DNA from: an uncultured Rhodanobacteraceae bacterium
GTDB taxonomy: Bacteria > Pseudomonadota > Gammaproteobacteria > Xanthomonadales > Rhodanobacteraceae
Reading direction: 5' to 3'
Assembly: GCA_964608595.1 (NCBI GenBank)
Contig: CAZSOU010000001.1
Coordinates: 6,716 to 70,715, forward strand
DNA: 64,000 nucleotides
The translations under genes and the position numbers were made by a program. Positions 52,313-53,926 of this stretch are shown in pieces. Numbering within the stretch: the first letter of the stretch is position 1; every line of letters begins with the position of its first letter. The notes under the pieces are model-generated. The model saw nothing but the letters and a program-made list of their open reading frames with translations. It made no database searches and was not told the DNA's origin.

Positions 52313-53926
52313 TCATAGGACGTCAGCCTCCTGCAACAGTTTGCAGATGCTGTACAACGTAGTTTCTCTTACGCGCTCATTGTTGAAAGCGCCTTGGTGC
52401 TCAAACCCATCCAAGCGAAAGCTTTGCTTGACGCTGCCTCCGCCTTGCAGGTTGGGGGCCTCACCCGAGCATGCCGGCACCGTGCCGTCGCCGGGCTGGC
52501 TTCCCGGCCCCGCAATTTCAAAGGTGATCCCGCCGTACGGGATGATGTTCAAGGTGACTGGATCACTGCCTGAATAAAGCGCATAGTCCCGAAGGTCTTT
52601 TGGCACTTTGAAATCACCGGGCTTGGATGAACTCTCCCAATCCAGTTCGTCCCATGCCGGATAATCGGTGGTGTCAGATCCGTAGTTCACGTAAGTTTGT
52701 GAGTGATAATAGGTTTTCAGCGTATAATGGAACTTACGAGTTGATCGAAGGTTTGGAACATACCCCTTTAACCATGGATCAAGTTTAAGTCGCTTGTAAT
52801 GATCAGCCGGATCAATTAAAGAAGGATCAACGAGTCGCCACCAGCGCGTCTTATCCAAATACAATACCGTATACGGGTCACTCGCATTTTCTGGTAGCGA
52901 AAAAGCCACGTGCTCTCCCAGCTTTGCGCGCAACCAGTTGGCCGGGTACTGCTGGTTTGGCAGCAACTCCATTGCGCCGGGGCTATTGGCAAATACGGCA
53001 GTGACTTGTGCCGCGTTCCTGCCAAGCACAACGGAGGGCATGCCACTGTAACCACTCCGGCAGTGATGATAGGCGGCTGCCGCGCCGTTGGCCGGAAGTT
53101 CGCCATGCACGATGCCAAGCACTTTTTTACTTGCACCACCGTATGCTTCATGCACGGCGGCACGTGCAACCAGACCGCCCATGGAGTGGCTGACCAAAAT
53201 AACCTTGGCACAACTGAAGGGCTTACGTCCATCAACTTCCAGATTGTCCCAATAGTCGGTGATCTCTTGAATCCGTTTTGCAAGGCGATCCTTTCCCGAA
53301 GCACCATTACTTTGGAGCCAGTTGTAACCCACCGCGTGCACAGGACAGTAGAAGTTGTTCCACGCGTGGCTTGACTCCTTTTCCGTTATCGCCTGGAACG
53401 GCTTTTCGGGATTCCAGTTGTCATCATACGCCCCCTTCCCCTCGTATTCTTTCCAGGGCGACTGATCCACACCCGGTGCGGATGATCCACACAAATCCGA
53501 ATTGAGCCGATCATCCAGCCAGCGTAGAAATTCGCCATATGAAAACTTCGATGGCCCGCCCCAACCCCGTTTCTCCGCGGCGTCGGCATCGGGCACTGTG
53601 GCACTAGGGCCCGGAAAATTACCGCGCTCGTCCACCTCGCACTCGGTGTAACGCAACTTCTTTTGGCGCGTGGAGGCCTGGCGGAAGGCCCACTGAAGCG
53701 CGAGAGAGCCTTTCGAGCTGACGTTCCAAACGGACTCTCCGGTGTGCTTGTTACACAAGTTCGAACCCATGATGCCTGGCACAAAGACCACTGGTACCAC
53801 GGTGTGAGGGAGTGCTTTGCACTGTGCACGCACTCTGTTGCCGGTGGACGAAGTGATGGTCTTTGCAACAGGAACGCCGTCCGGGCCGAGGGTAGTGGGA
53901 ATCAGGCGCGTCGTCTCTTCTGACAT
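52313..53926 (-). CDS. Candidate T6SS-delivered alpha/beta-hydrolase (phospholipase/lipase-like) effector, 537 aa
   Basis: Oxyanion-type VVFVPGIMGSNL; nucleophile elbow VSHSMGG (Ser248, nt 53183-53185); GDGTVP (Asp480); FEHQG (His510). The SD TAAGGAG overlaps the vgrG stop. There is no signal peptide. AT-richer than its surroundings. Confidence 0.7.
   Translation of the reverse strand: MSEETTRLIPTTLGPDGVPVAKTITSSTGNRVRAQCKALPHTVVPVVFVPGIMGSNLCNKHTGESVWNVSSKGSLALQWAFRQASTRQKKLRYTECEVDERGNFPGPSATVPDADAAEKRGWGGPSKFSYGEFLRWLDDRLNSDLCGSSAPGVDQSPWKEYEGKGAYDDNWNPEKPFQAITEKESSHAWNNFYCPVHAVGYNWLQSNGASGKDRLAKRIQEITDYWDNLEVDGRKPFSCAKVILVSHSMGGLVARAAVHEAYGGASKKVLGIVHGELPANGAAAAYHHCRSGYSGMPSVVLGRNAAQVTAVFANSPGAMELLPNQQYPANWLRAKLGEHVAFSLPENASDPYTVLYLDKTRWWRLVDPSLIDPADHYKRLKLDPWLKGYVPNLRSTRKFHYTLKTYYHSQTYVNYGSDTTDYPAWDELDWESSSKPGDFKVPKDLRDYALYSGSDPVTLNIIPYGGITFEIAGPGSQPGDGTVPACSGEAPNLQGGGSVKQSFRLDGFEHQGAFNNERVRETTLYSICKLLQEADVL

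Follow-up and report, generated by a model that had tools for sequence, protein, structure and literature searches.

Gene content of the island

We analyzed a 64,000-nucleotide stretch of DNA from an uncultured Rhodanobacteraceae bacterium (contig CAZSOU010000001.1; the whole stretch is called the window below), in which a lipase gene stands between a gene for a type VI secretion system (T6SS) spike protein and a gene for a putative immunity protein. The lipase gene occupies 52313..53926 on the minus strand, starts with ATG and encodes 537 amino acids. Its predicted product is an alpha/beta-hydrolase effector of the Tle4/TplE family, that is, a putative phospholipase. An earlier note, made from the letters of the window, had reported an open reading frame (ORF) at these positions without stating its strand. 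The ORF exists and is read on the minus strand, the plus-strand translation of the interval being riddled with stops.

Upstream of the lipase gene lies vgrG (53940..56933, minus strand), which encodes a T6SS spike protein of 997 amino acids with matches in Pfam, NCBIfam and the PDB. Downstream lies a tli4-like putative immunity gene (51248..52300, minus strand), whose product (hereafter the Tli protein) has 350 amino acids when read from the ATG at 52300, or 352 when read from the GTG at 52306; gene callers on metagenome contigs pick the 350-residue start. Together vgrG, tle4 and tli4 form an island at 51248-56933, all on the minus strand. The gaps measure 13 nt between vgrG and tle4 and 6-12 nt between tle4 and tli4, and each holds a sequence of the Shine-Dalgarno type (GGAGA between the vgrG stop codon and the lipase ATG), which suggests that the island is a single operon. 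No extra ORF was found between the three genes, in agreement with the earlier statement that there is no adaptor gene, and an ORF survey revealed no second candidate immunity gene in the island.

Family assignment of the lipase

A sequence search of the PDB by phmmer returned one strong match to the lipase, 4r1d_A (E = 1.4e-59, 205 bits), in which lipase residues 8-535 were aligned with chain residues 13-560, that is, end to end. The entry 4R1D is given as the Tle4-Tli4 complex of Pseudomonas aeruginosa in the Foldseek description and in the passages of PMC9860674 and PMC6560169 that cite Lu et al. (2014). An AlphaFold2 model of the lipase, built on 47 homologs, reached a mean predicted local distance difference test score (pLDDT) of 92.1 and a predicted template-modelling score (pTM) of 0.93. 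Its best Foldseek match was again 4r1d_A (E = 4.7e-35, template-modelling score (TM) 0.74/0.76, 30% identity), and the second match was 26 orders of magnitude weaker. Lysosomal phospholipase A2 (LPLA2) and LCAT followed (E 1e-8 to 1e-6, TM 0.4-0.59, 13-15% identity), and then bacterial family I lipases. Judged by sequence and by predicted structure, the lipase is a T6SS lipase effector of the Tle4/TplE family, with an alpha/beta-hydrolase core and a cap. The family had been left open in the earlier note; the full-length phmmer match and the best Foldseek match now answer this clearly in favour of Tle4/TplE. The suggestion that the gene encodes a candidate T6SS lipase effector was borne out by sequence, predicted structure, Pfam and synteny.

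The Pfam scan, which listed matches to E<=0.1, gave PGAP1, LCAT, DUF676, Abhydrolase_6 and Hydrolase_4 and nothing else. The PGAP1 score (PF07819, 29 bits) was over the gathering cutoff of 24.3 bits, and the LCAT score (PF02450, 19.6 bits, residues 216-324 only) was under the cutoff of 21 bits. These matches, together with LPLA2 and LCAT as next structural neighbours, support the earlier description of the protein as LCAT/PGAP1-like. Assignment to the LCAT/LPLA2 family proper was rejected because the LCAT match is partial and below the gathering threshold, and the lipase, although it would work in a similar way, is a remote relative of that family, not a member. Candidate assignments to Tle1 (DUF2235), Tle2 (Lipase_3), Tle3 (DUF3274) and Tle5 (PLD, HxKxxxxD) were likewise rejected, none of these families giving a Pfam match at E<=0.1, and no structure of Tle1 or Tle3 occurred among the Foldseek matches at E<=1e-3. 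The NCBIfam scan yielded a family for neither the lipase nor the Tli protein.

No signal-like segment was found at the N-terminus of the lipase, where the first hydrophobic stretch is a beta-strand at residue 43, and no transmembrane helix is indicated (maximum 19-mer hydropathy 1.31). PAAR, MIX and Rhs domains were absent from the Pfam scan, in which only alpha/beta-hydrolase families appeared. The hydropathy and Pfam scans thus agree with the earlier report of no Sec signal and no PAAR, MIX or Rhs domain.

Nucleophile elbow and conserved residues

Four motifs were found in the order and with the numbering reported before, namely VVFVPGIMGSNL at residue 46, VSHSMGG at 245, GDGTVP at 479 and FEHQG at 508. 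The putative catalytic triad consists of Ser248 (SHSMGG elbow), Asp480 (GDGTVP) and His510 (FEHQG), and the oxyanion-loop motif is FVPGIMGSNL (residues 48-57). In the phmmer alignment with PA1510, the Tle4 of P. aeruginosa, the corresponding pairs are SHSMGG/THSMGG, GDGTVP/GDETVP and FEHQG/YEHQE. Furthermore, H247, S248, M249, G250, G251, G479, D480, T482, V483 and H510 are invariant in the alignment of the 47 homologs (36-60% identity to the lipase), as are P50-G51, M53-G54 and G200-Y201-N202-W203. Because the motif residues are invariant across all 47 sequences, the motif set is, from the alignment, far beyond chance. We take G200-Y201-N202-W203 and P50-G51-x-M53-G54 to be equivalent to the YDW and VPGxLGN motifs of the LCAT family, a correspondence that agrees with the fold found by Foldseek. 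The lipase and the LCAT family have VPGxxGxxL, YxW, xHSxG, D and H in a common order, and in the GHS[L/M]G of the eukaryotic LCAT/LPLA2 enzymes the elbow starts with a true Gly.

The earlier note had singled out the Ser that replaces the first Gly of GxSxG and had assigned GxSxG to Tle1-4. The Ser is present, but it is no peculiarity of this protein: the residue before His247 is Thr in 35 of the 47 homologs and Ser in the other 12, with Gly in none, and the elbow of PA1510 in the phmmer alignment is THSMG. On this alignment, SHSMG is the norm of the Tle4 family, in which [T/S]HSMGG is found throughout, and not a departure from it. The Tle4 motif is given as TxSxG in the literature (PMC9846239), and the elbow of Tle3 from adherent-invasive Escherichia coli (AIEC) is SHSQG, also with Gly replaced by Ser, as confirmed by a crystal structure (PMC9860674).

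The Tli4-like gene product

The Tli protein matched the Pfam family Tli4_C (PF18426) over residues 193-350 (E = 1.2e-14, 55 bits against a cutoff of 25 bits), and its PDB matches were modest (4r1d_B, which is Tli4, E = 2.7e-4; 5h7y_A, E = 1.8e-4). Tli4_N was undetected by Pfam even at E<=10. The N-terminus of the protein (MKNMPTWRRAVFGVVIFGLGMQGTCA) has a basic n-region and a hydrophobic h-region of 11 residues, with a hydropathy peak of 2.47 at residue 11, and a conserved C-x-GRF motif after this signal-like segment aligns with the start of mature Tli4. The closest homologs (L004-L009) have the same N-terminal layout, some of them with lipobox-like xAGC/xVAC motifs. A canonical lipoprotein lipobox was considered for the protein of the window and rejected, as the Q-G-T before its Cys does not fit [LVI][ASTVI][GAS]C.

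Proteins of this kind can also act in loading. Berni et al. showed that Tla3 (PA0259), a Tli4 homolog without a signal peptide, is the cytoplasmic adaptor for Tle3 (PMC6560169), and if the Tli protein likewise served in the cytoplasm as an adaptor or chaperone for loading the lipase on VgrG, this could account for an N-terminal half without a Tli4_N match. However, the N-termini of the Tli protein and of its closest homologs are of the export type, unlike that of Tla3, and the island would then be left with no candidate immunity gene. The signal-like N-terminus favours immunity and disfavours a Tla3-like adaptor, a role that was rejected on this ground and that we consider extremely unlikely. 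From its sequence and by analogy with Tli4, the Tli protein is probably exported and a Tli4-type immunity protein, whose mode of immunity we infer.

The upstream VgrG and its C-terminal domain

The VgrG of the island contains a gp27-like domain (residues 64-378), a gp5 OB domain (482-545), a T6SS_Vgr domain (615-719) and DUF2345 (771-923). Its Pfam E-values are 2.5e-69 for Phage_GPD, 2.6e-19 for Phage_base_V, 8.5e-33 for T6SS_Vgr and 7.1e-37 for DUF2345, and NCBIfam gave TIGR03361 (E = 6.4e-85). The PDB matches were VgrG1 4mtk (9e-43) and VgrG1 of enteroaggregative E. coli (EAEC), 6sjl (1e-31), VgrG residues 619-978 being aligned with residues 500-816 of the EAEC chain.

DUF2345 is followed by a C-terminal extension (53940..54150, minus strand; approximately residues 928-997), a beta domain of about 70-75 amino acids in which no Pfam domain was found. 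An LSREMNxW linker (53940-54233, VgrG residues ~925-935) joins the two and is invariant in 11 of 11 aligned relatives; we know of no described function for this motif. When searched alone, the last 98 residues aligned with EAEC VgrG1 residues 741-816 at a weak E-value of 0.046. Word-indexed homolog searches gave 2 matches with a query of 98 amino acids and 10 fragmentary matches with a query of 238, and the shallow alignment that resulted from so few homologs led to a mediocre AlphaFold2 model, with five beta-strands and a pLDDT of 78-90 in the domain and 69 overall. The best Foldseek match of this model (pLDDT 69) was 6sjl_A (E = 8.5e-3, probability 0.99, TM 0.44). An exhaustive HMMER search revealed the domain in 57 representative clusters, always at the extreme C-terminus of proteins of ~750-1090 amino acids or of fragments. 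By sequence and model, the extension may be a transthyretin-like (TTR) domain, as in EAEC VgrG1 and PAO1 VgrG2a.

In PAO1, deletion of vgrG2a abolishes Tle4-dependent killing and VgrG2b, with a near-identical spike core, is no substitute, from which the authors inferred that VgrG2a needs its C-terminal TTR domain for Tle4 delivery (PMC7376260). For EAEC, PMC9860674, citing the 6SJL work, describes direct binding between Tle1 and the VgrG1 TTR extension. By analogy with these systems, the extension of the window VgrG is a probable Tle4-docking domain, and direct loading of the lipase onto it is the most likely route of delivery and the one we favour. The earlier note had named direct binding to the VgrG C-terminus as the route left to the lipase, in agreement with the inference made for VgrG2a and Tle4.

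Gene order among related loci

A word-indexed protein search returned at least 2001 homologs of the lipase at E<=1e-5. The closest, 53-59% identical, come from Dyella, Fulvimonas, Rhodanobacter and Frateuria, in keeping with a host that is probably a member of the Rhodanobacteraceae, and further ones from Lysobacter, Luteimonas, Paraburkholderia, Cupriavidus, Burkholderia and Collimonas. Their names are generic ('esterase/lipase family protein', 'hypothetical protein' or 'pimeloyl-ACP methyl ester carboxylesterase'). Among the species representatives of GTDB, at least 443 tle4 loci were confirmed (the best with 59% identity to the lipase); 80 of these were fetched, and 74 had enough upstream DNA. 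In 50 of these 74, the end of a VgrG on the same strand lies no more than 400 bp upstream. The last 110 residues of the window VgrG are detectably similar upstream of tle4 homologs in 35 loci, and in several of them the identity of the VgrG C-terminus exceeds that of the rest of the spike (39% vs 29-31% in the Pseudomonas loci L060 and L076). The downstream ORF was sampled by Pfam at eight loci (from Acidovorax, Herbaspirillum, Ralstonia, Rhizobacter, Pseudomonas, Photorhabdus and Enterobacter), with Tli4_C present in all eight and Tli4_N in six. With VgrG upstream in 50 of 74 loci and Tli4_C downstream in 8 of 8, the association of effector, immunity protein and spike is, as far as the compared sequences go, a property of the Tle4 family.

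The Tli protein itself is too divergent for tblastn, its identity being 28-29% even beside a 59%-identical lipase. Its best match outside near-identical contigs, with 40% identity, is in Frateuria sp. Soil773 (L057, 10079-11053), about 2.5 kb downstream of a 33%-identical Tle4 homolog and not adjoining it; this gene may be an orphan or arrayed immunity gene. The genes that flank the island (TPR, RelA, glycosyltransferase, PBP1B) were found in related loci only on near-identical metagenome contigs.

The generic names of the public homologs and the Pfam matches to general alpha/beta-hydrolase families would also suit a housekeeping or secreted esterase/lipase unrelated to the T6SS. For such an enzyme, however, the missing signal peptide, the full-length match to a proven T6SS effector, the location of the gene, 13 nt behind vgrG and directly ahead of a Tli4 homolog, and the synteny kept across beta- and gammaproteobacteria would all be unexpected, and the probability of this explanation is negligible.

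A more serious alternative is that the same fold serves another chemistry or target, the protein being an LCAT/LPLA2-like acyltransferase, a phospholipase A2 (PLA2), a lysophospholipase, or a toxin directed mainly against eukaryotes (amoebae, fungi, plants). The nearest structural neighbours outside Tle4, LPLA2 and LCAT, are transacylases as well as phospholipases, the LCAT-type motifs (VPGxxGxxL, YxW, [S/T]HSxG) are conserved, and identity to TplE is only ~30%, so that homology does not fix the specificity of the enzyme as phospholipase A1 (PLA1) or PLA2, lipase or acyltransferase. TplE has additionally been reported as a trans-kingdom effector that targets the endoplasmic reticulum via a PGAP1-like domain (PMC6099711, PMC6560169). 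On the other hand, an exported Tli4-type gene adjoins the lipase gene here and in all the sampled relatives, and the presence of such a gene is understandable only where the toxin strikes sister cells in their periplasm, so that an antibacterial role is expected regardless of the chemistry. We regard this alternative as unlikely, and an antibacterial phospholipase remains the preferred reading.

Base composition, vgrG remnant and possible cassette exchange

GC content is 0.66-0.70 over most of vgrG and 0.46-0.60 from ~54.3 to 51.2 kb, and the resulting low-GC block (51200-54300) comprises tli, tle and the last ~120 codons of vgrG. The average GC content is 54.9% in tle and 51.0% in tli, while that of the window is 62.0%; at third codon positions the values are 0.60 and 0.50, while in the neighbouring genes they are 0.72-0.79. 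As the block spans the VgrG C-terminus, tle and tli, it suggests that the C-terminal domain of VgrG was acquired with the toxin-immunity pair.

A vgrG remnant, a pseudogene fragment of 114 bp (51119..51231, minus strand), lies between the tli stop codon and a convergent glycosyltransferase gene. Its counterpart in vgrG, with which it forms a direct repeat, lies about 5.15 kb away at 56271-56384; blastn gave 96 of 114 identities (84%) to vgrG codons 183-220 (1 gap, E = 3e-31, same orientation), and the fragment translates to ...TDLAFVERLLAEEGLG... with a frameshift. The remnant was probably left behind by a downstream vgrG that has been lost or by cassette recombination. In relatives, tli is frequently followed by a second vgrG or a vgrG remnant (L005, L029, L010). 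Together with the low-GC block and the remnant of the window, these copies suggest a cassette that comprises the VgrG C-terminal domain, toxin and immunity gene, moves as a unit and is exchanged by recombination between vgrG genes.

A wider reading joins two claims, that the cassette of ~51.2-54.3 kb is self-contained and swaps between vgrG genes by homologous recombination at conserved vgrG segments, with the remnant as its footprint, and that in this Rhodanobacteraceae clade of Tle4 the N-terminal domain of the Tli partner, unrecognisable by profile, inhibits the lipase otherwise than by the crab-claw grasp of PA1509, the Tli4 of PAO1. In combination the two are doubtful, and we put them forward tentatively. 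If true, they would refine known T6SS biology without adding a new kind of system.

Two metagenome contigs (L001 from SRR8648366 and L002 from SRR8648368) are 100% identical to the window over ~50750-55380, which includes the 3' end of the glycosyltransferase gene, tli, tle and vgrG. Left of ~50750, inside the glycosyltransferase gene (48991-51105, plus strand), their identity falls abruptly to ~70-83%. This break is either a sharp recombination breakpoint, which gave closely related strains a mosaic GT2/GT4 glycosyltransferase, or an assembly chimera.

Genomic context and probable maintenance of the island

Analysis of 44 large ORFs across the window by Pfam revealed none of the T6SS core genes (tssA-M, hcp, clpV, PAAR), which makes the locus an orphan vgrG island within the chromosome core. 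The island is inserted on its own, with a block of a TPR protein and relA on one side and a block of the glycosyltransferase and PBP1B on the other. The other large ORFs are housekeeping genes, among them those for a CLC channel, PGI, 6PGD, G6PD, a LysR regulator, aconitase, acyl-CoA synthetase, ScpA/B, an RluB-like protein, MurB, DHODH, MutL, an AmiC-like amidase, NAD(P)HX repair, MFS transporters, PBP1B, the GT2/GT4 glycosyltransferase, the TPR protein, RelA/SpoT and HrpA. One ORF of 826 amino acids (2327-4807, plus strand) encodes a complete phosphoglucose isomerase domain (residues 109-593) and, behind it, a ROK (glucokinase-like) domain (616-751); it may represent a fusion of pgi and glk, or the ORF may have been extended artificially.

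The missing core genes, together with the low GC content of tle and tli and the vgrG fragment, which point to recent horizontal acquisition and rearrangement, could mean that the island is a relic. The genome would then have no functional T6SS, or the island would be silent, and the lipase would stay undelivered, its genes being kept by toxin-immunity addiction or because of recent transfer. However, the three ORFs are intact and tightly coupled, the catalytic residues are all kept, and three independent metagenome assemblies contain the island with 100% identity, which suggests maintenance. Orphan vgrG islands far from the T6SS core are also normal for Tle4: the vgrG2a satellite island of PAO1 carries vgrG2a-tle4-tli4 (PMC7376260; see also PMC6560169 for P. 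aeruginosa), and 'Tle4-like' genes beside orphan VgrGs have already been catalogued in Xanthomonadales (PMC6653060). A relic is consequently very unlikely, and we return to the reading of the island as a working effector module.

Discussion

The vgrG-tle4-tli4 island is very probably an antibacterial T6SS effector module with a Tle4 phospholipase and a Tli4-type immunity protein. The lipase falls in the Tle4 family by sequence and predicted fold, its triad residues are invariant among homologs, the Tli protein is of the exported type, and the gene order is conserved in relatives. Several observations weigh against this reading. Identity of the lipase to the sole characterised member of the family, Tle4/TplE, is only ~30%. 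The likeness of the VgrG C-terminal domain to TTR is weak (E = 0.046 by sequence and 8.5e-3 by Foldseek, from a model of pLDDT 69). The N-terminal half of the Tli protein has no Tli4_N match, and its PDB match to Tli4 (E ~2e-4) is confined to the C-terminal domain. The 64-kb window carries no T6SS core gene. Finally, no convincing promoter before vgrG or terminator after tli was found, as the counts of the consensus scan over 50.9-57.3 kb did not differ from those of shuffled sequence.

By analogy with the systems described so far, the module most likely works as follows. The three genes would be co-transcribed, and the lipase, made without a signal peptide, would bind the C-terminal domain of the cognate VgrG trimer non-covalently in the cytoplasm. 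The loaded spike would next be fired into the periplasm of a neighbouring Gram-negative cell by a T6SS whose genes lie elsewhere in the genome. There the lipase would undergo interfacial activation and hydrolyse membrane glycerophospholipids, with PLA1-type specificity by analogy with TplE, and the cell would lyse. In the proposed active site, Ser248 would be the nucleophile, activated by His510 and Asp480, and the PGIMGS loop and Met249 would supply the backbone amides that form the oxyanion hole. The exported Tli4-like protein would shield the producer and its kin by binding the toxin in the periplasm. TplE/Tle4, a PLA1 toxin of the H2-T6SS, acts in the periplasm and is counteracted by Tli4 (PMC6099711, PMC9860674). 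In the 4R1D complex, as summarised in PMC9860674 and PMC6560169, Tli4 grasps the cap and lid, holds the toxin closed and blocks interfacial activation.

The closest known system is that of PAO1, where Tle4/TplE (PA1510), Tli4/TplEi (PA1509) and VgrG2a (PA1511) are encoded in the same order, that is, vgrG (with DUF2345 and a C-terminal domain), tle4 and tli4. The two lipases are homologous end to end (TM ~0.75) and share the [T/S]HSMGG elbow, their GDxTVP and xEHQ motifs are aligned, and each is encoded beside an immunity protein with Tli4_C. Both loci lack an adaptor gene, and each is an orphan vgrG island apart from the T6SS core (PMC7376260). The two systems also differ. At ~30% identity, the lipase of the window is shorter (537 amino acids, while the crystallised chain has 569 residues), and its elbow has Ser where PA1510 has Thr before His-Ser, a variant shared with 12 of the 47 homologs. 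The N-terminal domain of its Tli protein is unrecognised by Pfam Tli4_N. Furthermore, the PAO1 island has hcpA and PAAR3, while the island of the window has neither an hcp nor a PAAR gene.

LCAT/LPLA2 and the PGAP1-like PF07819 proteins are the next-best structural neighbours, and the Pfam PGAP1 and LCAT matches lie around the nucleophile elbow. The insertions and the cap differ from those of LCAT/LPLA2, and the lipase of the window is bacterial, cytoplasmically made and linked to a T6SS. Tle1 and VgrG1 of EAEC (cryo-EM structure 6SJL) offer a parallel for delivery: the effector gene adjoins that of a VgrG with DUF2345 and a C-terminal domain, and the effector binds directly, no adaptor being involved. 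The effectors belong to different families, as the lipase of the window has no DUF2235 match, and the similarity of the window VgrG C-terminus to that of EAEC VgrG1 is weak. Tle3 (DUF3274), known from AIEC and P. aeruginosa together with Tli3 and Tla3, is also an alpha/beta-hydrolase T6SS lipase in which Ser replaces the first Gly of the elbow (PMC9860674). However, the lipase of the window matched neither DUF3274 nor a Tle3 structure, and Tle3 needs a cytoplasmic adaptor, while the Tli protein has a signal-like N-terminus.

The lipase of the window is an ordinary, moderately divergent member of the Tle4 family with standard partners. Its enzyme family, its type of immunity and delivery through a linked VgrG are all covered by earlier work, and no new question is opened by this locus. 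What it offers is better annotation, as the lipase is unnamed in the public collection and its generically named homologs can be annotated as Tle4-family T6SS phospholipase effectors, together with their Tli4 immunity genes and cognate VgrGs. In addition, the elbow of Tle4 is [T/S]HSMGG and not GxSxG across this large family, which matters for motif-based mining of effectors.

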